Source: an uncultured Thermomicrobiales bacterium
GTDB taxonomy: Bacteria; Chloroflexota; Chloroflexia; Thermomicrobiales; UBA6265
DNA length: 64,000 bases
Reading direction: 5' to 3'
Assembly: GCA_964244115.1 (NCBI GenBank)
Contig: CAXTHM010000013.1
Location: forward strand, 1,035-65,034
In this document: in pieces, positions 46,157 through 60,030 of the stretch
Layout: each line of letters opens with the position of its first letter
Position numbering within the stretch: the first letter of the stretch is position 1
The notes under the pieces: model-generated
Told to the model about the DNA's origin: nothing
Database searches by the model: none
Seen by the model: the letters and a program-made list of their open reading frames with translations, nothing else
Position numbers and translations under genes: made by a program

Positions 46157-46888
46157 CTACCCGGAACGAGCCGCCGGCTCATCGGAGACCAGCCGGACCG
46201 CCGCGTAGGGCTGCGGGCCGATCTCCGCCCAGCCGCGGGTGACCGCGTAGCGCAGCGCGGCGACCCGGTCGTCGACCTGGAGCTTGCGCAGCACTGACGT
46301 CATGTGGTTCTTGACGGTCTGCTCGGTGATATAGAGCCGCGAGGCGATCTCCTTGTTGGAGTTGCCCATGATCAGGCAGTCCAGCACCTCGAGTTCCCGT
46401 GGCGACAGCGTCGGTCCGAGGTCGGGAGCCTCCCCGCCCTGACTCATGGTCCGGAACTCCTCCAGGACCTTCTGGGCCAGCGCCGGGCTCCTGAGCACGG
46501 ACTGATGGAGCAGGTTCTCGCCGTCGAGGACCGCCACGACCGAGTCGATAATGGTCGCGGGATCGCTGTCCTTGGTCAGGAACCCGAGCGCCCCGGCCCG
46601 GATGGCGGCGAAGAGGCGTTCATCGTCGACATGCATCGAGAGGAAGATGATCGCGACGTTCGGCAGCTGGCGCCGGAGGGCGCTCGCGATCTGCAAGCCG
46701 GTGACGCCGGGCAACTGCACATCCATGATCACCAGATCAGGACGCTCGACCTCGGCCAGGTGCAGCGCCTGATAGCCGCTCGCGGCCTCGCCGATGACGC
46801 TGAGCCGGTCATCGGACGAGAGGATCCGACGGAGTCCCACCCGGAAGAACGGGTGGTCGTCGACGATGAGCAGACGCCGTGTGTCCAT
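46157..46888 (-). CDS. NarL/LuxR-family response regulator (orphan)
   Basis: Receiver LLIVDDHPFF...DLVIMDVQLPG. C-terminal LuxR HTH LSPRELEVLDCLIMGNSNKEIASRLYITEQTVKNH. Confidence 0.85.
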   Translation of the reverse strand: MDTRRLLIVDDHPFFRVGLRRILSSDDRLSVIGEAASGYQALHLAEVERPDLVIMDVQLPGVTGLQIASALRRQLPNVAIIFLSMHVDDERLFAAIRAGALGFLTKDSDPATIIDSVVAVLDGENLLHQSVLRSPALAQKVLEEFRTMSQGGEAPDLGPTLSPRELEVLDCLIMGNSNKEIASRLYITEQTVKNHMTSVLRKLQVDDRVAALRYAVTRGWAEIGPQPYAAVRLVSDEPAARSG

Positions 46889-47234
46889 GACGTGACCCTC
46901 GGTTGCATCCCGGTCCAACGAGTCGTCGTCCGATACGTCACTATCGCGTGGGGGAGCGACCGGCTAAAACGGCGAGGGAAATCAAATCCGTGCCCCGGTT
47001 GACGTTCTACCTGTCTCACTGTACTCGTCCAGGCGGGATAAACTCAGTCCCCCATCTCTCCTATGACTTTCAGCGTTTTGCGCAATACCGGACCAGCACC
47101 CCCATCCGGACCGTCGACCACGCGTATACTTCGCGGCGATTCCTCGCCGCGCCAGCGACGCTCCACCTCCGGACACCGATCATGAGGTGACCACCGGGCT
47201 GGCTGCGCAGAACGCCCGTACGAAAGGTTCCCCC

Positions 47235-48536
47235 GTGTCCAGCGATCGCCCGTCATCCGCGGCCGCGCACCGCCGTGTCGTCGTCACCGGTCTGGGTTCC
47301 ATCACCGCGCTCGGTCCCGATGCGACCAGCACCTGGCGACGGCTCACCGCCGGGGAGACCGGCATTGACCGGGTCGCCGGTCTGGACCCGGACGAGTACG
47401 GCTGCGTGCTCCGCGCCGACATCGACGACGCCACCGAACCCCATCGGTTCCTGACCGGCAAGGCCGCCCGAACGACCTCCCGGTTCTCACGGCTCGCGGT
47501 CGAGGCGGCCGGCGAGGCGCTGATCGACGCCGGGCTGGTCGGCGACGACCTGCAGCCCGTCGAGACGGCGGACCTCTCCGAAGGCGGGGCGCTGATGGGA
47601 ACCTGCCTCGGCGGGACCTACGACGATCTCCTGCCGGCTTACGAGACCTTCCTGGCCCGTGGGGCGAGCCGGGTCCCGCCGCACCTCCACGTCATGTTTC
47701 CGCACAACCTCGCCGCCTACACGATCCAGCACCGGTTCGGGATGGGCGGACCGAGTTCGACCGTGGTGACCGCCTGCTCCACCGGTGCGCAGGCGATCGG
47801 CGATGCGTTCCTGGCCGTCCGGGACGGCCGGGCCCCGATCATGGTCGCCGGCGCGGTGGAGTCGCATCGCAACCCGTTCTTCATCGCCGGGTTCGCGGCG
47901 ATGCGGGCCCTCGTCACGGACAGCAACGACGACCCCGGCGCCGCCGTCCGGCCGTTCGACGTCACCCGGGCCGGGTTCGTCCTCGGCGAGGGCTGCGGGA
48001 TGGTCGTCCTGGAGGACCGCGAGCGCGCCGAGCGACGCGGGGCCCGGATCTACGGCGAGATCGTCGGCTACGCGACGACCAACGATGCCTATCACCCGAT
48101 CGCCCCGCTGCCGGATGGTTCCGGAGCCGCCCGGGCGATGCGCAACGCGATCGCGGACGCCGGGATCAGCCCGGACCGGATCGGACTCGTCAACGCCCAC
48201 GCCGCCTCGACGCCGGCCGGCGACCTCGCGGAGGCGATCGCGATCGCCGATGTGTTCGGTGAGCGGGCGACCTCGATCCCGGTCACGTCCTACAAGGGGG
48301 CGTTCGGCCACTGCATGGGTGGGTCCGGCGCGATCGAGACGGTCGCGACCATCCAGGCGCTCGTCCATGGGACGATCCCGCCGACGCGGAACTTCCACGA
48401 CCACGACCCGGAGGTCCCGGTCCGACTCGATATCGTCGCCGGGTCGGCCCGGCCGACTTCGGCCGAATGGGCGATCAAGAACTCGTTCGGGCTCGGCGGG
48501 CAGAACGCTTCCCTGGTGCTCCGTCGGGAAGGTTGA
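47235..48536 (+). CDS. Beta-ketoacyl-ACP synthase II-like condensing enzyme (second KAS paralog)
   Basis: Active-site TACSTGAQAIG (Cys), NAHAASTPAGD (His) and GHCMGGSG (His). GTG at 47235 preceded by GAAAGG. The ORF could start at 47187. Confidence 0.8.
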   Translation: MSSDRPSSAAAHRRVVVTGLGSITALGPDATSTWRRLTAGETGIDRVAGLDPDEYGCVLRADIDDATEPHRFLTGKAARTTSRFSRLAVEAAGEALIDAGLVGDDLQPVETADLSEGGALMGTCLGGTYDDLLPAYETFLARGASRVPPHLHVMFPHNLAAYTIQHRFGMGGPSSTVVTACSTGAQAIGDAFLAVRDGRAPIMVAGAVESHRNPFFIAGFAAMRALVTDSNDDPGAAVRPFDVTRAGFVLGEGCGMVVLEDRERAERRGARIYGEIVGYATTNDAYHPIAPLPDGSGAARAMRNAIADAGISPDRIGLVNAHAASTPAGDLAEAIAIADVFGERATSIPVTSYKGAFGHCMGGSGAIETVATIQALVHGTIPPTRNFHDHDPEVPVRLDIVAGSARPTSAEWAIKNSFGLGGQNASLVLRREG

Positions 48537-48609
48537 TGCCGCATTCCTGGGCGGTAGGGACCGCCGAGGCGGCCTCGTCGGCCGCGGAGCGTCGCTCGCT
48601 GTCTGAACG

Positions 48610-49977
48610 TCAGGCCGACGGCGCGTGCGACGGGTCGACCGCCGCCGCCGGGGCGATCCTGGGCCACTGGAACTTCTCGGTCGCCTCCACCCCGAGATGG
48701 TCGAGCATCGCGGCGACCACATCCGGATCCCACTGGATCCCGGCGCCCTCCATCAGGATCGCGACGGCCCGCTCGTGGGGCATCGCGCCCCGGTAGGAGC
48801 GGGCGCTGGTCATGGCGTCGTAGGAATCGGCCACCGCGATGATGCGGGCGCCGATCGGGATCAGCTCCGCGGCGAGACCGTCAGGGTAGCCGCCGCCGTC
48901 CCAGCGCTCGTGATGATGACGCACCATGAGATGCCCGTCACCATAAGAGGCGAACGTCGAGACGATGCTGGCCCCGAAGACGGGATGCTGCTTGATGAGA
49001 GCGAACTCCTCTTCCGTGAGGCGGGCGGTCTTGTGGAGGACATCGGGCTCGATGATGATCTTGCCGATGTCATGGACCTCACCGGCGCTCTCGATCACGA
49101 CCGCCTCCTCCGGAGTGAAGCCGAGCTTCAGAGCGAGGACGCCCGACGTCTCGGCCACCCGGCGGGAGTGGCCGGCCGTGTAGGCATCGCGCAGTTCGAG
49201 CAACTCGACCAGACGCGTCAGCGCGTCGTGGGTATCCGTCTCGAGCTGCGATGCCCGCCGCGAGGAGATCGAGATCAGCACGACCGGAACGGCCAGGATC
49301 GGGACGACGAGCGGTTCGACGAGCGCGAGGATGGCGGCGACGATCCCGATCCCGAGCTGGGTAGCCTCGGTCGGAAGGTCCCGGACGAGGTGTGCTCGCC
49401 AGACCCGGAACACGTTCACGCCCATCTGGAGAGCCGACGCCACCGAGACCAGACCGTAGTTCACGACCGTCAGCACCATCGCCGCGATCACGATCGCCCC
49501 GACCGAGCCGAGCCCGGCGAGGTGCGGGCCGAGCCACGTCGCATCCTTGAGGACGACGTAGACGGAGCCGCTGATCATGACGTGAGCGATGGACTGGCTG
49601 ACGTTGAAGATAGTCTCGGTTGGGTCTTCCGGACGGAGCATCAGGTACCCGACCAGAGCCGGGAGGCCGACCGCGAGACCAAGGAGCGGGAGGGGCGTCG
49701 TCAGGACGAGTGCCGTGTACGGAACGGTGATCATGAAGAGTTCGACGCCGGACCGCACCACGATGGGAAATCGGATCGCGAGGACCGTCATGACCATCAG
49801 AACCGAGACAGCGGGAAGGTCGAGACCAGAAAAGGCGTTCGGTACGAGCAATGGCGGGAGAACCGCCAGTGTCGTACCGAACGCCGCGCAGATCAGGATG
49901 TACCACTTGAGAGACGCGGGTATCGCACCCACTCGCTTGTCCTGACCAGCCTGCTGGTATCCGGTTCGCCAGATCAC
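48610..49977 (-). CDS. Membrane-bound HD-GYP domain phosphodiesterase (c-di-GMP signalling) with an N-terminal sensor of about 8 TM segments
   Basis: HSRRVAE, EVHDIGKI and HHERWDGGGYPDGL. Multiple N-terminal hydrophobic segments. GTG start at 49977. Confidence 0.8.
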   Translation of the reverse strand: MIWRTGYQQAGQDKRVGAIPASLKWYILICAAFGTTLAVLPPLLVPNAFSGLDLPAVSVLMVMTVLAIRFPIVVRSGVELFMITVPYTALVLTTPLPLLGLAVGLPALVGYLMLRPEDPTETIFNVSQSIAHVMISGSVYVVLKDATWLGPHLAGLGSVGAIVIAAMVLTVVNYGLVSVASALQMGVNVFRVWRAHLVRDLPTEATQLGIGIVAAILALVEPLVVPILAVPVVLISISSRRASQLETDTHDALTRLVELLELRDAYTAGHSRRVAETSGVLALKLGFTPEEAVVIESAGEVHDIGKIIIEPDVLHKTARLTEEEFALIKQHPVFGASIVSTFASYGDGHLMVRHHHERWDGGGYPDGLAAELIPIGARIIAVADSYDAMTSARSYRGAMPHERAVAILMEGAGIQWDPDVVAAMLDHLGVEATEKFQWPRIAPAAAVDPSHAPSA

Positions 49978-50027
49978 CCCGACCAGAGCCGACCGGAGAT
50001 GGGAGCCGCCAGCGTCAAAGACGGCGG

Positions 50028-50291
50028 CTAGTTGACCGAAGCATACACGTTATGGCGAACGGTGTACACGCTGGCCTTGCCGATGGCGGTCGGCTCGACG
50101 GCCGACGACTTGATGACGCACTTGCGGCACCAACCGATGCCGGCCTCGGCCTGCGGGACGCTCGCGCCGAAGGCGCCGAAGGCGACACCGGCGGTGATCG
50201 CCACCGCGGCGACGACGCGGCGGGAACGCCAGACGCCCCCGACCATGATGCTCTTGATGGAAGCGGCCTGGGTCTTGGTGGTGGTAGCCAT
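50028..50291 (-). CDS. Small secreted peptide precursor (87 aa) with a predicted 37-aa mature CxxC peptide
   Basis: ATG at 50291 with AAGGGGA about 10 nt upstream. Signal-like RSRRVVAAVAITAGVAFGAFGASVPQAEA. Mature region GIGWCRKCVIKSS.... Very strong GC3 codon bias supports translation. Confidence 0.55.
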   Translation of the reverse strand: MATTTKTQAASIKSIMVGGVWRSRRVVAAVAITAGVAFGAFGASVPQAEAGIGWCRKCVIKSSAVEPTAIGKASVYTVRHNVYASVN

Positions 50292-50557
50292 GTGGTCTCG
50301 TTCCCCTTGTGGATGGTCGCCCGGCGGCCAGCGCCATGGTCGACGGATCGGTATGTCGGAGGGAGACGTCCGGCGGATGGACCACGGAAGCCCGATGAGG
50401 CTCCTGGTGCGGTGCCGCGGCGAGACACCGATCACTCCGTGTCCGGTGAGATCTCCCTGACGTGACGTGCCCGCGAGGAGCGCCCCAAAGGCGACTTCTG
50501 ACGGAAATGACCCGTTCGGGTCATCCGATCAGGCTAGTACTGATCGGCACTCCATCC

Positions 50558-50585
50558 ATTCTACCTATCCAATGGTCATAGTCAA
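50558..50585 (-). promoter_or_regulatory. Near-consensus sigma-70 promoter (TTGACT-16-TAGAAT) on the minus strand in an AT-richer patch
   Basis: The minus strand reads TTGACTATGACCATTGGATAGGTAGAAT. It would give a leader of about 260 nt before the peptide ATG. Confidence 0.5.
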
Positions 50586-51016
50586 TAGGTCCTGTCTCCG
50601 AATACCTCAATAGGGGCGAATTTGCCTGCCACGATCGGGTCCTGACGATAATCTCGCTAGCGGAGGCGTTCAGTAGCCGATGACGTGCGAAAATTGGCAA
50701 TATTGCGGATATATTGATCAGGATTTCGGTCACGTCCGCTGCTATCCGATCGGCCCGTACGGTTCCGGCGAATTGGCTCCGACTTCGTGTTCGCCCCTCG
50801 CCCATCCCGGAGATCCGCCTGGCCTGCAGAGGACGACGTCCGGCTCGGGATCGCCGGGGCGACTGGCTGATCAGGCGATCCCCGTGAGCACGGGGGCGCA
50901 TCGGGACCGGACGCTGTCCGGTTCGAGCGCGCGGCGGTAGGATTTCGCTCATCGCGCGTGGGTTTCGCATCGAGCAGACCCGGGCTTGCGGTCGACTCAA
51001 CGGAGGATCAGGACTG

Positions 51017-51964
51017 ATGGAATCCGCGACGAGCCCCCTGGATCGGACCCGCGCCTTCCTCCGCGATCACCTGCGGATGCCGGGCGCCGACGCCCACGAC
51101 CTGCCCGACTCACCCCACCGGTTCGTGGACGGCGGCCAGTACCGCGTCGAGATCCCGTCCGTGGAGGGTCCGGCCTGTGTCCGGGCGGTCTATGAGACGG
51201 CGGACGCGCTCGGGGTGCCGATCCATCGCGTCAGCCAGGGCAGTGGAGTCATGCTGCTCACGGATGACGAACTCGACGAGATCGCCGCCCTCGCCCGCCA
51301 GCGGGGGATCGAGGTCAGCCTGTTCGTCGGCCCCCGGGCGGGCTGGGACACCGGCGCCATGAGCCAGGCTCCGGCCGGGCGGGTCGTCGCCCCGAAGATC
51401 CGGGGCATGGACCAGCTCGTCCATGCCGTCGAGGATGTCCGGCGGGCCTGCGAGCACGGGATCACCAGCGTCCTGATCACGGACGAGGGGCTACTCTGGG
51501 TGCTGGACGCGATGAAGCGGGCCGGTGAGCTGCCCGCCGAACTGATCCTCAAGGGGTCGGTCATGATGGCGGCCAGCAACCCCGTCTCCATCCGGCTGCT
51601 GGCGGACAACGGCATGACGACGTTCAACGTCCCGACCGACCTGTCGCTGGCCCACCTCGCCGCCATCCGGCAAGCGACGGCGATCCCGCTCGACATCTAC
51701 ATCGAAGCGCCGGATGACATCGGCGGTTTCATCCGGCACTACGAGATCGCCGAGATCATCCGCGTCGCGGCTCCGGTCTATGTCAAGTTCGGGCTGCGGA
51801 ACGCGCCGAACATCTATCCGTCCGGCACCCATCTGGAGGCGACGGCGGTCGCGCTCACCCGGGAGCGCGTCCGGCGGGCGAAGCTCGGGCTCGACCTGTT
51901 GCATCGGCTCGACCCCGACGCCGTCATATCTCCACTCCCCACCCGGAGCGAGGCGGTCACGTAG
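51017..51964 (+). CDS. Conserved hypothetical protein of unassigned function
   Basis: 315-aa ORF with GGAGGA RBS and good GC3 bias. No catalytic motif recognised with confidence. Confidence 0.6.
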   Translation: MESATSPLDRTRAFLRDHLRMPGADAHDLPDSPHRFVDGGQYRVEIPSVEGPACVRAVYETADALGVPIHRVSQGSGVMLLTDDELDEIAALARQRGIEVSLFVGPRAGWDTGAMSQAPAGRVVAPKIRGMDQLVHAVEDVRRACEHGITSVLITDEGLLWVLDAMKRAGELPAELILKGSVMMAASNPVSIRLLADNGMTTFNVPTDLSLAHLAAIRQATAIPLDIYIEAPDDIGGFIRHYEIAEIIRVAAPVYVKFGLRNAPNIYPSGTHLEATAVALTRERVRRAKLGLDLLHRLDPDAVISPLPTRSEAVT

Positions 51965-52111
51965 GACGGAGGTGGAGACCTCCGGCTGCTAGCATTGCCT
52001 CAGGGCAAGGCGGATACTGGCCGAATGCCGTTGCCCGGTGACGGCGACCGGCCAGTGCCACCCGGTCGCCGGGTCAGTCACCGTCCCGCCGATTCAGCCA
52101 GAGGGTCGCCT

Positions 52112-53071
52112 GTGCAGCTGTCCGAACTCCCCGCCGACACGCTTGCCTTCGTCTTTCCCGGTCAGGGCAGCCAGCATCCCGGCATGGGTCAGGCCGTCCA
52201 CGACGCCTCGCCGGCGGCCCGGGCCGTCTTCGCCGAGGCCGACCGTATCCTCGACCGGCCGCTGACCGAGCTCTGCCTGACCGCGCCCGCCGACGTCCTC
52301 GAAGACACGGCCACGGCCCAACCGGCCATCCTCACCGTCAGCGTCGCGATCCTGGCGGCGATCCGGGAGCGCACGGAGACAGACGGCACGACCGTGACAC
52401 CGCGGGTGGTCGCCGGACACTCGCTCGGGGAGTTCACGGCGATGGTAGCCGCGGGCGTCCTGGACTTTCCCACCGCCCTCCGGCTCGTCCAAGAACGTGG
52501 CACGCTGATGCGGCAGGCCGGCATCGAGCGGCCCGGGGGGATGGCCGCGGTCATCGGGCTGGACGACGACACCCTCGACGCGATCTGCCGGACGGCCTCG
52601 GAGCTCGGCATCGTCGGGGTCGCCAACGCGAACTGCCCGGGGCAGGTCGTGATCAGCGGCGAGTTGCCGGCCCTGGCGCGGGCGATGGGCCTCGCGAAGG
52701 AGGCGGGCGCCAAGCGGGTCCTCCGCCTTCCGGTCAGCATCGCGTCACACTCGCCGCTCATGAGCGCCGTCGCGGCCCGGATGGGCGAACTCGTCGCGCG
52801 GGTCGCCCTGCGCATGCCGGCCATGCCGATCGTCGCCAACGCCTCCGGGCAGCCGATCGTCACGATCGACGCGATCAGGACCGAGCTGAGGACGCAGGTC
52901 GAGCAGCCGGTCAACTGGACGACGTCCGTCCGGGAGATGATCGCCAGCGGAGCGACGACCTTCGTTGAGATCGGCCCCGGGCAGGTCCTGGGGGGCCTGA
53001 TCCGGCGGATCGACCGCAACGTCACGGTCGTGACGGGCCAGGATCTGCTCACCGGCCAGACGACCGACTGA
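52112..53071 (+). CDS. fabD: Malonyl-CoA:ACP transacylase
   Basis: FVFPGQGSQ and GHSLGEF motifs. GTG at 52112 preceded by GAGGG. Confidence 0.9.
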   Translation: MQLSELPADTLAFVFPGQGSQHPGMGQAVHDASPAARAVFAEADRILDRPLTELCLTAPADVLEDTATAQPAILTVSVAILAAIRERTETDGTTVTPRVVAGHSLGEFTAMVAAGVLDFPTALRLVQERGTLMRQAGIERPGGMAAVIGLDDDTLDAICRTASELGIVGVANANCPGQVVISGELPALARAMGLAKEAGAKRVLRLPVSIASHSPLMSAVAARMGELVARVALRMPAMPIVANASGQPIVTIDAIRTELRTQVEQPVNWTTSVREMIASGATTFVEIGPGQVLGGLIRRIDRNVTVVTGQDLLTGQTTD

Positions 53072-53282
53072 CGGTTCACCCACGGGAGCGGGGCGGTGGC
53101 GGTGCTACCCTTCGTTTCGTACACTGTCAGCTTGACTTCTCCGGAGTCTCCGGCCGATGGGTCAGGACGAGTCCGGGTCAAGTGAGTGCCCGACCGGACC
53201 GGTCAACGATGGGCGCTGTCCCGAAACCTCCCGACAAGCACATGGATTCTCCCGAGTCGAGACGTACGGAAGGGTGTAAACC

Positions 53283-54524
53283 GTGACGCGGCGAGTCGTT
53301 GTAACAGGAGTGGGCGCGGTCTCCCCGCTCGGGATCGGGGCGGAGACGCTCTGGCGAGAATTGCTGGCCGGTCATTCGGGGATCCGGACGATCCAGAACT
53401 TCGACGCGTCCGAACTGGAAGTCAAGATCGCCGGCGAGGTCCCCGGGTTCGTTCCGAAGGACCACATGGATGCGAAGCTGGCCAAGCGTATGGGGCGCTT
53501 CGCCCAGTTCGCGGTCGCCGCGTCGCGCGAGGCACTCGAGAGCGCCGGCCTGACGATCACCGATGACAACCGGGAGCGCGTCGGCATCGTCCTGAACACC
53601 GGCGGCGGTGGCGTGCCACTCATCGAGGAGGAGACCCGCAACTCCCTGGCGAAGGGCCGGCGTGGCGTCGGTCCCTTCCTGATCCCCATGTTCTCGCCGA
53701 ACATGGCCAGTAGCCAGGTCGGCATCAGCTTTGGCATCAAGGGTCCGACGACGACGTCGGTCGCTGCCTGCGCCGCCGGCACCCAGGCGTTCGTCGACGC
53801 CGTCCATACTCTCGAGCGTGGAGACGCCGACGTGCTCCTGACCGGCGGGACCGAGGCCGCGCTCTCGGCGGTCGCGATCACATCGCTGGCCCACATGGGA
53901 GCCCTAAGCCGCTGGGACGGCGACCCCAACGCCGCGAGCCGGCCGTTCGATGCCGAGCGCAACGGCTTCGTCTTCTCCGAGGGCGCAGTCGTGATGGTGC
54001 TCGAGACGGAGGAGCATGCCCTGGCTCGCGGCGCGACGCCGATCGCGATCGCATCCGGCGGTGCCTACACCGCCGATGCGTTCCATATGACCGCGCCAGA
54101 CCCGAGCGGCGAAAGCGCGGCCCGGGCGATGGCGGGGGCCGTCCGGCGCGCCGGGCTCGAGATGAACCAGATCGACTACATCGCCGCCCACGCGACTGCG
54201 ACGCAAATCGGTGACGCGGCCGAGACCAAGGCGATCCGGAAGGCGTTCGGCGCCCACGCCGACGCCCTGGCGATCTCCGCCAACAAGTCCATGATCGGCC
54301 ACCTCCTCGGGGCGGCCGGCGCCGTCTCCGCGATGGCCTGCGTCTTCGCGATCCGCGACGGCCGGATCCCCCCGACGATCAACCTCGAGACGCCGGACCC
54401 GATGTGCGACCTGGACTACACGCCCAACGTGATGCGCGAGTTGCCCGTCCGGGCGGCACTCGCCAACGGCTTCGGCTTCGGCGGCCAGAATGCCTGCGCC
54501 GTCTTCCGCGCCTACGACCGCTGA
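53283..54524 (+). CDS. fabF: Beta-ketoacyl-ACP synthase II
   Basis: RVVVTGVGAVSPLG, AACAAGTQA (Cys), HATATQIGD and GHLLGAAG. Confidence 0.9.
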   Translation: MTRRVVVTGVGAVSPLGIGAETLWRELLAGHSGIRTIQNFDASELEVKIAGEVPGFVPKDHMDAKLAKRMGRFAQFAVAASREALESAGLTITDDNRERVGIVLNTGGGGVPLIEEETRNSLAKGRRGVGPFLIPMFSPNMASSQVGISFGIKGPTTTSVAACAAGTQAFVDAVHTLERGDADVLLTGGTEAALSAVAITSLAHMGALSRWDGDPNAASRPFDAERNGFVFSEGAVVMVLETEEHALARGATPIAIASGGAYTADAFHMTAPDPSGESAARAMAGAVRRAGLEMNQIDYIAAHATATQIGDAAETKAIRKAFGAHADALAISANKSMIGHLLGAAGAVSAMACVFAIRDGRIPPTINLETPDPMCDLDYTPNVMRELPVRAALANGFGFGGQNACAVFRAYDR

Positions 54525-54564
54525 TGGGTCGGCCCACTCCACGTCCCGCCCGTCGAATCCGACC

Positions 54565-54602
54565 CTGACGACGGGCTCCCCAGCCGGGGAGCCCGTCGTC
54601 AG
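54565..54602 (+). terminator. Perfect 17-bp stem hairpin after fabF (no U-tract)
   Basis: CTGACGACGGGCTCCCC-AGCC-GGGGAGCCCGTCGTCAG. Confidence 0.55.
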
Positions 54603-54711
54603 ACCATCGGTATCGCCCGTGACACGCACGCGACGACGCGCACGGATTGCGCGGGTTGCTATCATCGTGGGACGCAGCGCGCCCGACCCCCCGCGGTGCC
54701 CGGAGGCAACG

Positions 54712-55392
54712 ATGACTCAGCGAGACGATCCCTCTGACGACGTGGATACGACCGGCGAGGACCCGAAAGGCTTCGCCCTGCACCGACGCCTGCTGGAGCG
54801 GGACCCCGTGGCCCGACGCCAGTTCTGGAATCGCTATTTCGACGCGCTCGCTCACTATGCGACCAGCCGGATCTTCGACACCGTCAGCCGTGAGGATGCG
54901 GGCCGCACCCTCTCCATGCACGTCATCGAGGCCATGATCGACCGCCCGGAGCGATTCGATCCGACCCGCGGCAAGAGCCTCTACGGCTATCTGATGATGG
55001 ACCTCAAGGGCGACATCGCGAACTACCTCGCCAAGCTCACGCGGGAGCCGCGGCCGATCCGGCTGGACGCACCGATCGGTGGTGACGGCGACGATGTCGG
55101 AAACCAGGACCTGGGTGGGAACCTTCCTTCGGGCGAACCTGGCCCCCAGGAGATCGCCGAATCCGCCGAGAGCCAGGCCCGGGTCGACGCGATCCGGAGA
55201 CGGGTCGTCGAGACGGACGAGGAGGGCATCGTCTTCGACCTGCAGTACGTCGCGGGGGAACGCGCGACCGACGCCTTCGCCACCGCCCTGGGGCTCACCG
55301 GGGTGCCCTCGGGCGAGCAGGCCCTGGTCGTCCAGAAACTGAAGGATCGACTGGCGAAACGACTTCGCCGGATGCGAGAGGACGAACGATGA
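54712..55392 (+). CDS. Sigma-70 family (ECF-like) protein
   Basis: Region 2-like RFDPTRGKSLYGYLMMDLKGDIANYL. Region 4-like IVFDLQYVAGERATDAFATALGLT...LKDRLAKRLRR. GGAGG RBS. The stop overlaps the next ATG (ATGA). Confidence 0.6.
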   Translation: MTQRDDPSDDVDTTGEDPKGFALHRRLLERDPVARRQFWNRYFDALAHYATSRIFDTVSREDAGRTLSMHVIEAMIDRPERFDPTRGKSLYGYLMMDLKGDIANYLAKLTREPRPIRLDAPIGGDGDDVGNQDLGGNLPSGEPGPQEIAESAESQARVDAIRRRVVETDEEGIVFDLQYVAGERATDAFATALGLTGVPSGEQALVVQKLKDRLAKRLRRMREDER

Positions 55393-55874
55393 ACGAGGAC
55401 GCGAACAACGTCGCGACTCGACCAGACGATGACGCGGACGATGAGACGTTCAGACCGACCCCACTCACGGCGGATCAGCTCGCCTGGCTGCGGGATCGGG
55501 CGGCGATCCGGGACTCCGCCCTCGGCAGCCAGCTGCTCCGGTTCCGGGAGCAGGAAGGCTGGACGCACGAACAGCTCGCCGACCACCTCGGCCTGACGCC
55601 CGAGGGGCTTGATCGGCTCAGTCTCTCCGGCCGGCCGCGCAAGGACCGGTTCGCCGCCGATGTCCGGGCCATCGCCGCCGACAGTGGCGTCCCCGACCTA
55701 CAACTGATGCAGCTCCTCCGGGCGGTCGAGAGCCGGGACGCCTTCGTCGGCTCCCAGGCGGCCCGACGGATCGTCGCGGCCGCCCGTGACCACGACGACC
55801 AGACACCATCGCCCGCCGAGCAGCGCCTCCGCGAGGCGAGCGAACCGGAGCAGTCCGAAGACGATCACCGGTGA
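55389..55874 (+). CDS. XRE-family helix-turn-helix protein
   Basis: LLRFREQEGWTHEQLADHLGLTPEGLDRLSLSGRP fits the HTH_3 pattern. Coupled to both neighbours by 4-nt overlaps. Confidence 0.6.
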   Translation: MNEDANNVATRPDDDADDETFRPTPLTADQLAWLRDRAAIRDSALGSQLLRFREQEGWTHEQLADHLGLTPEGLDRLSLSGRPRKDRFAADVRAIAADSGVPDLQLMQLLRAVESRDAFVGSQAARRIVAAARDHDDQTPSPAEQRLREASEPEQSEDDHR

Positions 55875-56590
55875 CCCGAGCGGAACTGGTCGGTGTCGCC
55901 GAGCGATTCTGGTCGCGGTCCGGCATGGAACCGCCCGAGCCGCGCTCGGTCCGGATCGCCATCTCCTGGGTCCACTCCGTCCGCGTCGAGACCCAGCCGG
56001 CGCTGTCGATCGCGACGATCCAGTCCTGGATGGCCGGGCAGGGGTTCACCGTCCCGATCGACGACCCGAACCGGCGGCTGCGCGGCTGCGCGGTCGCCTC
56101 GGCTGGTTGCGGCCTGATCTTCGTCGACGCCAGCGACCCGGCCGATGAGCGCGAGTTCACGGTCGCCCATGAGGTCGCCCACCTCCTCCTCGACTACTAC
56201 GGTCCCCGCGACCACGCGACGGACCTGATCGGTGAGGGTGCCCACGAGGTCTTCGATGGCGCCCGTGACGCGTCGTACTCCGAGCGACTCGCCGCCGCCC
56301 TGCACGGGGAAGCCCTCCAGCCCTTCGTCCACCTCCTCGCCCGCGATGCCAACTTCGTCGCCTCCGCCGCGGTCCTGGCGCGTGAGGCCCTCGCCGACGA
56401 ACTCGCCTGCGAACTCCTCGCCCCGCTGGCGGCCGTCCGCTCCGCCCTCCCGCCCTCCTGGGACCAGGCCGACGCGACCGCCATGCTGGTCAGCCGGTTC
56501 CGCTTGCCCGAGGGCGCCGCCCGGGACTACGCCCGGCGGCTGGCTCACCGCTTCCAGCCCACCCCGACCTTCGTCGACTGGCTTGGCTGA
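55871..56590 (+). CDS. ImmA/IrrE-family zinc metallopeptidase (M78)
   Basis: HEXXH in FTVAHEVAHLLLDY. The downstream EALADELACELLAP matches the family E..A..FA..LL.P block. Confidence 0.75.
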   Translation: MTRAELVGVAERFWSRSGMEPPEPRSVRIAISWVHSVRVETQPALSIATIQSWMAGQGFTVPIDDPNRRLRGCAVASAGCGLIFVDASDPADEREFTVAHEVAHLLLDYYGPRDHATDLIGEGAHEVFDGARDASYSERLAAALHGEALQPFVHLLARDANFVASAAVLAREALADELACELLAPLAAVRSALPPSWDQADATAMLVSRFRLPEGAARDYARRLAHRFQPTPTFVDWLG

Positions 56591-56692
56591 GGCCCTTCAT
56601 CGCCCGGCGACACGGTCTGGTTCCCGTCCCGGCTGGCCGTGCGGTACGCTGACCGGTACGCGAAGGTCCCGACCGTATGACGAAGGCGATGC

Positions 56693-57910
56693 ATGTCGAT
56701 CTCTGGACAGGACTCCGACGGCGCGATCGGCCCCGACGACGGGCTCGACGGTCCGATGGTCGACAACGAGCTGATCGACGACATCGCCTTCCAGCGTGCC
56801 TTCAATGAGCCGCTCGCCCAGACGCTCGACCTGGCGACCTGGCCCCGTGGCGGCGACATGATCGCCCTCTACCATCAACTCGAGCGCGAGATCGTCTCGG
56901 CGGCGCGGGATGAGGAGTCCCACCTCGACGAGATCCGGCGAACCGTCCTGCCGCACCTGAGCCAGCGCCCCAACCGGCCCGAGCAGACCGGTGTCTATCA
57001 CCTGACCCTGGATGATCTCCGCCGGGCGCACCGATCGATCCTGTTCAACGGCGGCGTCGAGGCCGCCCGCGGCACCGTCGCCGCCCACGACACGCTCGCC
57101 CTGACCGTGACCCAGCTCGGCGTCAGCCTCGTCAACTACCAGGGCGACCGCGGGACCTGGGGACACCGCCTGTTCCGGCGTGACCTGCGCTTTTCGGCCG
57201 GGGAGGTCGAGGACCTCGCGCTCCGCGTGATCCGGCAGCGGCAGGCCGGCGCCGCCGAGGACAGCGTCGCCGAGCGCCGGCTGACCCAGCTCGCCAGGCG
57301 GGGAATCCTGATGTACGCCGAGCGGTCCGCCCTGACCGACCAGGCGACGGCCCCCTGGCGCATGGGCTCCGGCACCCCGATCCCGTTCGAACTGGTGACC
57401 GGTGGCGGGAGCATGGAACTGGCGCTGCGGAGCGTCGACCTGCTCGACCGGCTCATCAATGGCCACAGGCGGTTCGTCTTCGTCTCGCCCGACACGCGCG
57501 AGCGCGGACTGATGACGATCGGCCACGCCCTCAAGCCGCTGGAATACGCCATCGTCGACGACGGCCTGCCCCGGCTCCGCTCGCTGGTCGATCGCGCCAA
57601 CTACACCCGGCGCGAACGCGATCGCATCGAGACCTTCATCGCGGAGACCGGCCCGGTCCTGCGTCTTGGGGTCTACCGGGCTTCCGAGATCGGTCCGCCG
57701 CGGCTGTTCTACGGGCATCAGGACCACATCCATGAGGCGGCGCTGGTCGCGATCGCCGATAGTGTCCTGCATGAGCACCGGGCCTTCCCGATGTTGCTGG
57801 ACCTGGCCGAACAGGTCTGCCGCGGGATGTTCCCCGCCAGTGAGCTGGCCGAGACGACCCGACTGGCCTACCTCGATGCCGGAGCGCCCCCGCGCTACGG
57901 GCTCGACTGA
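56693..57910 (+). CDS. Hypothetical protein, NurA-like nuclease candidate (partner of the HerA-like ATPase)
   Basis: 405 aa with GAAGG RBS. The stop lies 11 nt before the HerA-like start. Weak resemblance to NurA blocks (VAAHDTLALT...QLGVSLVNY and C-terminal AFPMLLDLAEQV). The assignment rests mainly on gene context. Confidence 0.4.
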   Translation: MSISGQDSDGAIGPDDGLDGPMVDNELIDDIAFQRAFNEPLAQTLDLATWPRGGDMIALYHQLEREIVSAARDEESHLDEIRRTVLPHLSQRPNRPEQTGVYHLTLDDLRRAHRSILFNGGVEAARGTVAAHDTLALTVTQLGVSLVNYQGDRGTWGHRLFRRDLRFSAGEVEDLALRVIRQRQAGAAEDSVAERRLTQLARRGILMYAERSALTDQATAPWRMGSGTPIPFELVTGGGSMELALRSVDLLDRLINGHRRFVFVSPDTRERGLMTIGHALKPLEYAIVDDGLPRLRSLVDRANYTRRERDRIETFIAETGPVLRLGVYRASEIGPPRLFYGHQDHIHEAALVAIADSVLHEHRAFPMLLDLAEQVCRGMFPASELAETTRLAYLDAGAPPRYGLD

Positions 57911-57921
57911 GGACGAGGACG

Positions 57922-60030
57922 ATGGTGCGTAGCTGGTTCAACTCCCCGAAGGACAAGTCGCAGGCGAAGGACGAAGAGGCGGAAGCGCCCTCGTTCTGGC
58001 CGCCCCTCAAGGCCGACCTGCCCGAGGCGCCCGCGCCCGCGCTCTGGCCCCCGCCGGCCGCACCGGCCGATTCCACCGACGACATCGCGTCCGAAGTCGT
58101 CGCCGGGACCGATCCGGCGCCAGCTGCCACCCCGGTCAAACCCGATCCGGCGGTTGCGTGGTCCGAGCCCGTGTCAGTGTCTCCGGCACCTGCTGTTCCG
58201 TCATTCGCCCCGGAATTGCCGGTGGACGAGTGGAGCAGCACCCCGACCCCCAGCGAGACCGCGGCGCGACTCGAACAGACCGGCCTCTCGAACAGCCTCG
58301 ATCCCTGGATTCCCGACACGGTCAACGGCGTGGTCGGGCACACGATGTACGACCTGCCCAACAGCGAGGACGGGACGATCACCGTCCTGCTGCCCCGCGA
58401 GCACATCGCCGCGACGCCGAGCCAGGCCCTCGTCCGGATCGCCAGCGGCGACCGGCGCACCTACCTCGGCATCGTCGTGGCCGGGCCGTTCGCCGAGCCG
58501 GACGGGCTCCGGGCCGACGCCAACCTGATCGTCACGACCAGCGTCCGCAGCCAGCCGTTCCAGCCCCAGTTCCACGGCCGGATCAAGGTCGAACTGCTCG
58601 GCGAGGAGATCAACCGCGTCATCCAGGCGCCCCGGTTCCGGCCGCTGCCCGGAAGCCCCGTCACCGTCCTCGACGACGAGGAGACGACCCGCGTCCTGCA
58701 GGTCTCGGGCGACCTCCGCCTCGGGCGGGCGGTCGGCCACGACGATGTCCCGGTCGGCCTGCCGTCGCGGAGCAAGAACATCCTGCCCCGGCACCTCGGC
58801 ATCGTCGGCACGACCGGCGGCGGCAAGTCGACCACCGTCGCCGGGCTGCTGGCGGAGGGTCAGCGGGCCGGCCTCGCCATCGTGCTGCTGGATGTCGAGG
58901 GCGAGTACACCCACGTCCATGAGCCGACGAGCGACCCGACGATGGTCCGGCTCCTCGCCCACGATGGCCGTGAGCCGGCTGGCATCCCCGGCACCCACCT
59001 CTATCGCCTGGTCGGGCGAGACACGACCAATGAGGCCCATCCGAACTCCCACGAGTTCAGCCTCCGGTTCAGCGATCTCTCGCCCTACACCGTCGCCGAG
59101 ATCCTCGATCTGAACGAGGTCCAGCAGGAGCGCTACCTGCAGGCGTACGATGTCGCCAAGTCGCTCGCCGCCGAGGGGAGACTCCGCGGCGGCACCCCGA
59201 ACGTCGACATCGCCGAGCTGGACGACTTCGAGCAGGGCTGCCCCGGCGTCACCCTCGCCATCATGCGGAGCCTGATCGGCGCGTTCATCGGCGTGGCGGA
59301 CAAGGGCGAGCCCACGATCACCGAGCCGGCCATCGCGGACCAGTCCGCCACGATCCTGGCCAGGATCCGGGACCGCAAGCCTTCCAGCCCGGTGAGCTGG
59401 AAGGCTGTCCAGAGCCGGCTGGGCCGACTGCAACGCCTCCGGGTCTTCGACACCGCCCGGGGGCAGGCCGTGCCGCTGGACCTCGACACGCTGCTGGCGC
59501 CGGGCCGGGTCAACATCTTCGACCTCTCCGACATCGACGGGACCGACCTGCGCAACATCGTCATCGCGGACCTGCTGCGCGGCCTCCAGACCGCCCAGGA
59601 GCGTCGCTACGCGGCCTACGAGCGCGCTGACAAGGCCGACGGGCCGCCGCGGACCCTGGTCATCATCGAGGAGGCCCACGAGTTCCTGGCCCGGAACCGG
59701 GTCTCGAGCATGCCGGTCCTGTTCGCCCAGGTCGAGCGGATCGCCAAGCGGGGCCGGAAGCGCTGGCTCGGGCTTGCCTTCGTCACGCAGTTGCCGCAGC
59801 ATCTCGCTCCGCAGGTCTCGGCCCTGATCAACAACTGGGTGATCCACAAGGTCGCCGACCCGGCCGCGATCAGCGACCTGCGTCAGTCCGTCAGCGGCGT
59901 CGATGACAGCCTCTGGCAGACCGTCCGTGGCCTCGCGCCCGGTCAGGCCGTGGTCGCCTGCGGCCACATGACCCGCCCCGTCCTGACCGCGATCCACCCG
60001 GCCGCCGCCCAGCTCCGGATGGTGGACTAG
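57922..60030 (+). CDS. HerA/FtsK-like hexameric ATPase (DUF87-type) with a HAS-barrel and a Pro-rich N-terminal extension
   Basis: Walker A GIVGTTGGGKST and Walker B TLVIIEEAHEFL. Barrel-like region VGHTMYDLP...ALVRIAS...YLGIVVAG. The N-terminal approximately 125 aa are P/A-rich. Confidence 0.8.
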   Translation: MVRSWFNSPKDKSQAKDEEAEAPSFWPPLKADLPEAPAPALWPPPAAPADSTDDIASEVVAGTDPAPAATPVKPDPAVAWSEPVSVSPAPAVPSFAPELPVDEWSSTPTPSETAARLEQTGLSNSLDPWIPDTVNGVVGHTMYDLPNSEDGTITVLLPREHIAATPSQALVRIASGDRRTYLGIVVAGPFAEPDGLRADANLIVTTSVRSQPFQPQFHGRIKVELLGEEINRVIQAPRFRPLPGSPVTVLDDEETTRVLQVSGDLRLGRAVGHDDVPVGLPSRSKNILPRHLGIVGTTGGGKSTTVAGLLAEGQRAGLAIVLLDVEGEYTHVHEPTSDPTMVRLLAHDGREPAGIPGTHLYRLVGRDTTNEAHPNSHEFSLRFSDLSPYTVAEILDLNEVQQERYLQAYDVAKSLAAEGRLRGGTPNVDIAELDDFEQGCPGVTLAIMRSLIGAFIGVADKGEPTITEPAIADQSATILARIRDRKPSSPVSWKAVQSRLGRLQRLRVFDTARGQAVPLDLDTLLAPGRVNIFDLSDIDGTDLRNIVIADLLRGLQTAQERRYAAYERADKADGPPRTLVIIEEAHEFLARNRVSSMPVLFAQVERIAKRGRKRWLGLAFVTQLPQHLAPQVSALINNWVIHKVADPAAISDLRQSVSGVDDSLWQTVRGLAPGQAVVACGHMTRPVLTAIHPAAAQLRMVD

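Follow-up and report, generated by a model that had tools for sequence, protein, structure and literature searches.

A small cysteine-pair protein encoded ahead of a MASE9-like HD-GYP enzyme in uncultured Thermomicrobiales

What does a gene of 87 codons do directly upstream of the gene for a membrane-bound HD-GYP enzyme? The two genes lie in a stretch of 64,000 nucleotides (nt) from an uncultured Thermomicrobiales bacterium (contig CAXTHM010000013.1 of GenBank assembly GCA_964244115.1, positions 1,035 to 65,034), here called the window. A sequence-only reading of this DNA had proposed that the small gene encodes an exported peptide, possibly a ligand of the enzyme's membrane domain. To our knowledge, what membrane domains of the MASE type sense is largely unknown. 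A small cysteine protein, predicted to be exported and encoded ahead of a MASE9-HD-GYP enzyme, is a concrete pair for testing.

The answer we lean to, tentatively, is that the small protein is an accessory modulator of its neighbour, exported or anchored in the membrane and carrying a pair of cysteines. If the pair is functional, it would bring HD-GYP enzymes, and the Chloroflexota/Thermomicrobiota, into the theme of small proteins that tune membrane sensors, as MgrB, YfiR and DbfQ do. The pair is restricted to a narrow uncultured lineage, and the functional link is a proposal.

The small open reading frame (ORF) and its parts are as follows.
50028..50291, minus strand: small ORF, 87 amino acids and stop (ATG 50291 to TAG 50028), a conserved hypothetical family
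50300..50307, minus strand: Shine-Dalgarno sequence AAGGGGAA of the small ORF, 9-16 nt before the ATG, read from the sequence
50142..50291, minus strand: codons 1-50, candidate Tat-like/Sec-like signal peptide or signal anchor, from invariant columns, hydropathy and AlphaFold2 helices
50031..50141, minus strand: codons 51-87, predicted extracytoplasmic part of 37 amino acids, with G-x-G-W-C-x-x-C, a variable stretch and a conserved tail
50118..50129, minus strand: CxxC, within GxGWCxxC
50070..50117, minus strand: codons 59-74, hypervariable, also in length

The small ORF is a genuine gene under purifying selection, not a chance ORF. Its product is exactly the 87 residues quoted in the sequence-only reading, and the good ribosome binding site and biased third codon positions named there both hold up: GC content by codon position is 0.56/0.57/0.90, and a Shine-Dalgarno sequence precedes the ATG. 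Orthologues all have purine runs of the Shine-Dalgarno kind and a MA(D)TTTK start. The ratio of non-synonymous to synonymous change (dN/dS) is 0.24-0.37 throughout, except for one variable stretch. The GC pattern at third positions, the conserved start and dN/dS all speak for this frame over a reading on the opposite strand or as part of a longer ORF. Database calls of four homologues (P0006, P0018, P0028 and P0033) do have N-terminal extensions, and these lack conservation.

A single-sequence search finds 24 homologues of the protein at 54-96% identity, and a profile search finds 32, the weakest with an E-value of 3e-27. Beyond these 32 members the profile search returns no match up to E = 1, which means that the family is closed and narrow and has no distant members. 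No Pfam or NCBIfam model matches the protein, and sequence and profile searches of the PDB give only noise; the family is undescribed. The named sources of the homologues are metagenome-assembled genomes of Thermomicrobiales. The gene is single-copy; the window holds no second one.

The N-terminus was earlier described as signal-like and ending in AEA, and the alignment bears this out. It starts with an n-region of 25 amino acids, which includes a conserved SIKSIMxGGVW and then an invariant S23-R24-R25. Hydropathy then shows one hydrophobic core of 20 amino acids (residues 26-45), rich in A, G and T. The c-region reads PQA[ED]A, in which A48 and A50 form an invariant AxA site; Q47 is nearly invariant. 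Together these features match the pattern of the twin-arginine translocation (Tat) pathway: S23-R24-R25-V-V/I-A, an extended n-region, an h-region of only weak hydrophobicity, and AxA. The c-region is without a basic residue. Judged by this pattern, residues 1-50 resemble a long signal peptide of the Tat type, although they may instead use Sec, or remain as an uncleaved anchor. Either way, such an N-terminus almost certainly places the protein in the membrane or across it.

After this region comes the GxGWCxxC segment, followed by the variable stretch and a conserved C-terminal tail, VYTVRHNVYAS. W54, C55, C58, Y76 and Y83 are invariant. A cytochrome-c CxxCH, a thioredoxin fold and a lone Fe-S site were considered for the cysteine pair and rejected, because the second cysteine is not followed by a histidine, the part has only 37 amino acids, and there are only two cysteines.

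The codon analysis compared five segments. The n-region (codons 2-25) has dN/dS 0.34, the h- and c-regions 0.27, the GxGWCxxC segment 0.24 and the C-terminal tail 0.37. Codons 59-74 stand apart at 1.17, neutral or diversifying, a value that is approximate as the stretch is saturated and gapped. The n- and h-regions are thus constrained like the CxxC (0.27-0.34 versus 0.24), and the first 50 residues are more conserved than the 'mature' part. A signal peptide that is simply discarded would not usually be constrained to this degree. Conservation of the signal region on a par with the cysteine motif suggests a function in or at the membrane, beyond targeting for export.

The synonymous rate (dS) was also recorded. 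It is only 0.36 in codons 2-25 (50217-50288, minus strand), versus 0.6-1.07 in the other four segments. This hints at constraint on the nucleotides, from RNA structure or translation initiation, besides that on the protein.

The most divergent member of the family, at 38% identity, is P0035 (locus L014 303-653). Its n-region differs, yet SRSRRVV is kept. It has a tandem duplication of the module formed by SVGWCMRCY and the variable stretch, so that one chain carries two CxxC pairs. A MASE9-HD-GYP gene follows 93 nt later. Two CxxC modules in one protein would fit a site built from two CxxC pairs: a dimer, a metal site or a disulfide bridge.

The enzyme gene is divided as follows.
48610..49932, minus strand: MASE9-like/HD-GYP gene, 440 amino acids, from the conserved GTG start
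49237..49932, minus strand: N-terminal eight-helix membrane sensor domain, residues 1 to ~232, from phmmer, PF20972, AlphaFold2 and Foldseek
48673..49209, minus strand: cytoplasmic HD-GYP domain, residues ~242-420, from Pfam, motifs, alignments and Foldseek

That the small ORF lies upstream of a multi-transmembrane HD-GYP gene on the same strand is confirmed; both are on the minus strand. The distance needs correction. The gap of 50 nt reported earlier arises from the longest ORF, which starts at GTG 49977. In 14 of 14 orthologous loci, a GTG, TTG or ATG start lies 7-9 nt after a conserved GGTCAGGR Shine-Dalgarno sequence, and conservation begins at V/M-G-S/A-x-P-A-x-L-K/R-x-Y. The conserved start in the window is GTG 49932 (MGAIPASLKWY...), which leaves 95 nt between the genes.

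By its sequence the enzyme is an HD-GYP phosphodiesterase with catalytically intact motifs. Pfam finds HD_5 (8.5e-34) and HD (5.5e-17). The motifs GHS254, HDIGK287, QHP315, HHERWDGGGYP340, DSYDA369 and RSYR are all intact, and with them the key residues H254, HD287-288, H316, HHE340-342, GYP348-350 and D369/D372; the KPG motif is degenerate (KTA). A Foldseek search with the domain model reaches PA4781, PmGH and DvhD at E ~1e-9, and phmmer reaches PmGH, PA4781 and V-cGAP3 at 1e-25 to 1e-32.

The best PDB sequence match is V-cGAP3, which is specific for cyclic GMP-AMP (cGAMP). The RxY[K/R] motif has been associated with specificity for cyclic di-GMP (c-di-GMP; Galperin and Chou, bioRxiv 10.1101/2021.11.05.467447). 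The RSYR of the window enzyme fits this c-di-GMP class; the alternative substrate would be 3'3'-cGAMP.

The N-terminal half had been called an uncharacterised domain with eight transmembrane segments. The eight helices stand: hydropathy shows about eight hydrophobic segments, in agreement with AlphaFold2, which places eight helices in residues 6-248, one of them short (69-78), with a mean predicted local distance difference test score (pLDDT) of 92. 'Uncharacterised' does not stand, for by way of its relatives the domain appears to be a divergent MASE9. The enzyme would then be a new, divergent member of an architecture that has already been described.

The link to MASE9 is transitive. An exhaustive phmmer search with residues 1-241 returns representatives of 148 clusters, which align along the whole domain at 25-36% identity. 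Eighty-five of these relatives were scanned: 27 match PF20972 (MASE9), and their outputs are HD-GYP (~40), GGDEF (24), HisKA/HATPase (16) and EAL (14), the same outputs that MASE9 proteins have. P0037 is the closest non-orthologue and matches the membrane domain over its full length (phmmer E 2.6e-30); with 24.4 bits it just reaches the PF20972 gathering threshold of 24.3. An orthologue that is 81% identical to the window protein (P0036) scores 14.4 bits (E 0.036) against that threshold, and the window protein itself has no match to PF20972 at E <= 0.1.

MASE9 was defined as a domain of eight transmembrane segments with an intramembrane hairpin, found in TM1467 and HdgA; the only studied member in that paper is a poorly expressed enzyme of Streptomyces venezuelae (bioRxiv 10.1101/2021.11.05.467447). 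In these MASE9-HD-GYP enzymes (T. maritima TM1467; S. venezuelae HdgA/Vnz_24090) a complete HD-GYP domain follows directly on such an eight-helix domain. The window domain shares the eight transmembrane segments, two short helices, short outer loops and the N-terminal position with them, and unlike them it falls below the PF20972 threshold. Neither the defining paper nor a literature search describes a small-protein partner encoded upstream of a MASE9 protein.

The model of the membrane domain also resembles the vitamin-binding S-components of energy-coupling factor (ECF) transporters, such as RibU, FolT and ThiT. Foldseek superposes it on TmRibU, FolT and 4huq_S with TM-scores of 0.60-0.69 (target-normalised) and probabilities of 0.96-1.0. 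A profile of the domain finds two PDB sequences at E <= 10, one of which is TmRibU (E 0.73, weak), and 3 of the 85 relatives match PF07155 (ECF-ribofla_trS). The likeness comes from a predicted model and from sequence scores below threshold; the MASE9-defining paper does not mention it (bioRxiv 10.1101/2021.11.05.467447). Unlike S-components, the domain has eight helices instead of six, is fused to an enzyme, and has no ECF T or A components nearby. Going by the modelled fold, the ligands of MASE9 sensors may be small, vitamin-like compounds bound within the membrane.

The regulatory features of the two genes are as follows.
50558..50585, minus strand: predicted sigma-70-type promoter, -35 TTGACT (50585..50580), 16-nt spacer, -10 TAGAAT (50563..50558)
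50292..50551, minus strand: putative 5' leader of ~260 nt, conserved in length, with its 5' end (the transcription start) placed from the position of the -10 box
49933..50027, minus strand: intercistronic spacer of 95 nt, measured from the conserved HD-GYP start
50006..50027, minus strand: GC-rich hairpin CCGCCGTC-TTT-GACGCTGGCGG directly after the small-ORF stop, found by eye and by RNAfold
49940..49947, minus strand: HD-GYP Shine-Dalgarno sequence GGTCAGGA, conserved as GGTCAGGR

The intergenic region upstream of the small ORF measures 725 nt. The promoter in it matches 10 of 12 consensus positions, lies ~265 nt before the small ORF, and is the sole promoter-like site in 48400-51100. Its core, TTGAC...TA...T, is kept in all 14 orthologous loci, at 235-269 nt from -10 to ATG. 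The intercistronic spacer was searched for promoter-like and terminator-like sites, and none was found; 48400-51100 also has no U-tract terminator. In the 13 of the 14 loci where it was measured, the spacer is 86-99 nt long, and its sequence conservation is limited to the Shine-Dalgarno sequence. A GC-rich hairpin right after the small-ORF stop is often present across the loci; since the DNA is 69% GC, its significance is not callable.

One conserved promoter, and a spacer with no promoter-like or terminator-like site, suggest an operon. The small gene probably shares its promoter with the HD-GYP gene. We infer co-transcription of both genes as the simplest reading of this layout.

Near the 5' end of the leader are the stable hairpins CCGATCAG/CTGATCGG and ATGACCC/GGGTCAT. 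Every orthologue has hairpins there, with -19 to -37 kcal/mol in the first 75 nt, and their architectures differ. Close relatives show compensatory changes; more distant ones and sub-clades have a different architecture. RNAalifold on 13 leaders finds no globally conserved structure; the only conserved element is a stem of 7 bp, ~35-50 nt before the ATG and ahead of the ribosome binding site. Rfam gives no match at gathering score in the whole window, and only chance-level ones at E <= 5 in 49800-51200. On these results we rejected the idea that the leader holds an already described riboswitch or RNA family, such as a c-di-GMP riboswitch. We take it to be a 5' untranslated region, long and structured, with stabilising hairpins and not recognisable as a riboswitch.

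Both families appear confined to one Thermomicrobiales clade. The HD-GYP orthologues form one 50%-identity cluster (P0036), and pattern scans of GTDB genomes and JGI metagenomes return the same clade only. A hidden Markov model (HMM) search of the Thermomicrobium roseum megaplasmid (NC_011961.1) finds neither the small gene nor the HD-GYP orthologue; a U32-like neighbour of the pair has its orthologue there, in a different setting. All 14 distinct loci, including that of the most divergent member, have the HD-GYP orthologue directly downstream of the small gene on the same strand, and among them no member of the small family has another context.

The mechanism we have in mind would run as follows. 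In a clade of uncultured Thermomicrobiales, a lineage-specific two-gene unit would be transcribed from one strong sigma-70 promoter, giving a ~260-nt leader, the 87-residue pre-protein, the 95-nt spacer and the MASE9-HD-GYP enzyme. The small protein would insert with its N-terminus inside and its C-terminus outside, through a signal or anchor of the twin-arginine type, and would either be cleaved after AEA or be retained as a signal anchor. This would leave the segment of 37 amino acids outside the cytoplasmic membrane, with its GWCxxC pair, fast-evolving linker and conserved tyrosine-rich tail. The CxxC pair may report extracytoplasmic thiol/disulfide or metal status and in this way tune c-di-GMP hydrolysis. 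Contact with the sensor could be at the outer face of the membrane, through the unusually conserved A/G-rich helix, or both. Cleavage, export route, physical interaction and the redox or metal signal of the pair are what we infer here. In favour of the proposal we count that the gene is real and under selection, that SRR, AxA, WCxxC and the C-terminal tyrosines are invariant, that one conserved promoter, a steady spacing and the same-strand pairing recur across the loci, and that both families share a narrow distribution. It also agrees with the unusual conservation of the helix that forms the signal or anchor, with how little of MASE9 faces outward, and with the variant that has two CxxC modules.

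Several findings weigh against a modulator. A block of 12 kb is collinear in every locus, in the order M78 peptidase, helix-turn-helix (HTH) protein, unknown, beta-ketoacyl synthase (KAS), FabD, U32-like, the pair, a convergent KAS, REC-LuxR, AsnC and PBP. As all 12 kb are syntenic, the adjacency of the pair carries little independent weight. The two nearest MASE9-HD-GYP relatives (P0037 and P0039) do without such a small gene: an unrelated gene ends 8 nt upstream of P0037 and another gene 18 nt upstream of P0039, which leaves no room for the small ORF. A mirror-tree test of co-evolution, based on partial correlations of distance matrices for 9 taxa, finds no covariation specific to MASE9; the partial r of the small protein is 0.69 with MASE9, versus 0.63-0.78 with KAS1, U32 and the response regulator. 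The outward loops of the membrane domain are predicted by AlphaFold2 and hydropathy to have only ~8 and ~15 residues, and ligand binding by MASE9 has been proposed to occur inside the membrane (bioRxiv 10.1101/2021.11.05.467447). With loops this small and a fold like that of S-components, the sensor may have a ligand of its own. Finally, AlphaFold2 gives the small protein helices at 12-22 and 24-40 with an overall pLDDT of 55, but does not fold residues 41-87 with confidence (pLDDT ~50 in codons 51-87). The co-occurrence check asked for by the sequence-only reading cuts both ways: all 14 loci carry both genes, but within 12 kb of synteny, and the nearest relatives lack the small one.

The same synteny, outgroup genes, S-component-like fold, proposed intramembrane binding and non-specific co-evolution speak for a different reading, which is a real possibility: the small protein is functionally unrelated to the enzyme, only the promoter and the syntenic position are common, and MASE9 senses its own intramembrane ligand. 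Co-location would then need no functional cause. The tight layout on one strand, with conserved spacing of 86-99 nt and no internal promoter, fits this less well, as do the identical narrow phyletic distribution of both families and the lack, in 14 distinct loci, of any family member in another context. Less likely than an accessory modulator is a diffusible autoinducer or pheromone, in which the cleaved 37-residue peptide binds MASE9 and gates c-di-GMP hydrolysis; we consider it improbable. In its favour are the predicted export, the invariant AxA site and the position of the peptide gene before that of a membrane receptor, in what is probably one operon. The central stretch, with a dN/dS of ~1.2 between conserved flanks, resembles the diversification of pherotypes, and MASE9 itself evolves fast (p-distance 0.35 versus 0.14 for the HD domain). 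Against it stand the short outward loops and the ligand binding proposed to occur inside the membrane, and an S-component-like pocket is better suited to small molecules than to a 37-mer. The signal region is more strongly conserved than the 'mature' peptide, the neighbourhood has no dedicated genes for processing or export, no feedback circuit is evident, and the mirror-tree test found no specific covariation with MASE9. The earlier idea of a peptide ligand for the membrane domain goes unsupported.

Its alternative, a bacteriocin, fares poorly as well. Read as the precursor of a ribosomally synthesized and post-translationally modified peptide (RiPP) or bacteriocin, the small ORF would have its core in the variable stretch, between a leader and a follower that are both conserved, with the HD-GYP gene unrelated. 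The conserved-variable-conserved pattern agrees with this, and the tandem cassette of motif plus variable stretch in the most divergent member recalls precursors with multiple cores. The conserved 12-kb neighbourhood, however, holds no radical-SAM enzyme, cyclodehydratase, lanthipeptide synthetase or other maturase, no peptidase-ABC exporter or other transporter, and no immunity gene. The N-terminus is Sec/Tat-like with AxA, unlike a double-glycine or RiPP leader, and the distribution of the gene, a single copy always in the same syntenic place, is not patchy. We regard this as very unlikely. A more far-reaching form of the pairing, which we doubt, is that the small cysteine-pair protein partners a MASE9 domain or serves as its ligand, which would be the first such case known. 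As an exported co-receptor it would let a sensor that otherwise works within the membrane respond to redox or metal state outside; as a pherotype-variable peptide signal it would be read out directly as c-di-GMP hydrolysis. If true, either would provide a route from peptide to second messenger without an intervening two-component system.

Small regulators of membrane sensors are not new. MgrB is a bitopic membrane protein of 47 amino acids, and its periplasmic cysteines are needed to inhibit the sensor kinase PhoQ (PMC8404706). The window protein is predicted to be similar in being small, N-in/C-out, equipped with a conserved extracytoplasmic cysteine pair and associated with a membrane sensor. 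MgrB belongs to the regulon of its sensor, while the window protein is encoded beside it. Their sequences are not similar. The proposed partner in the window is a predicted c-di-GMP phosphodiesterase and not a histidine kinase, and the window protein has an AxA site and may be released.

YfiR-YfiN(-YfiB) and DbfQ-DbfS pair small periplasmic proteins with the membrane diguanylate cyclase or sensor kinase that they control and with which they are encoded (PMC3375315, PMC4992967, PMC12714742). MgrB and YfiR are also precedents for redox sensitivity (PMC8404706, PMC3375315, PMC4992967). The likeness to YfiR and DbfQ is that a small, presumably exported protein comes first in the operon, before a membrane signalling enzyme, with c-di-GMP or biofilm as output. 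Those two, however, fold as domains in the periplasm and bind there to the periplasmic domain of their sensor. MASE9 exposes hardly any surface outside the membrane, the 37-residue part has no confident predicted fold, and there is no homology to YfiR or DbfQ. Searches of Pfam, NCBIfam and PDB sequences link the small protein to no known small sensor regulator; the likeness is functional and architectural only.

In the Agr and Com systems, too, a peptide with a hypervariable stretch is exported and its gene lies beside that of a polytopic membrane receptor, as predicted here. Unlike in Agr and Com, the neighbourhood has no AgrB- or ComAB-like gene for processing or export, the presumed receptor is no histidine kinase, a Sec/Tat-type signal takes the place of the leader and autoinduction is not evident.

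The surroundings of the pair (46157-56590) include beta-ketoacyl synthases at 47187-48536 and 53283-54524 and a FabD-like acyltransferase at 51995-53071. A weak U32-family TIM-barrel protein (51017-51964) and a REC-LuxR response regulator (46157-46918) are in the same block. The membrane sensor might conceivably respond to a signal derived from lipids.

At one of the outgroup loci (L021 3-791), the gene 18 nt upstream of P0039 resembles an EAL-domain gene by eye. If it is one, the locus would have two types of c-di-GMP phosphodiesterase in tandem.

On the T. roseum megaplasmid, near the U32 orthologue (NC_011961.1; L022 14884-15201), a small 'PCYCGC motif-containing (lipo)protein' is annotated, along with a diguanylate cyclase gene. 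The HMM search finds nothing there and the sequence is unrelated to the small protein of the window; it is another protein with a cysteine motif in a c-di-GMP-rich neighbourhood.

Further along the window, on the plus strand at 55389-60030, an HTH_31 and Peptidase_M78 (ImmA/IrrE-like) pair is followed by a protein of 405 amino acids, which has no Pfam match, and a HerA-like ATPase of 702 amino acids (DUF87/HerA_C). This could be a module of the mobile-element or defence type.

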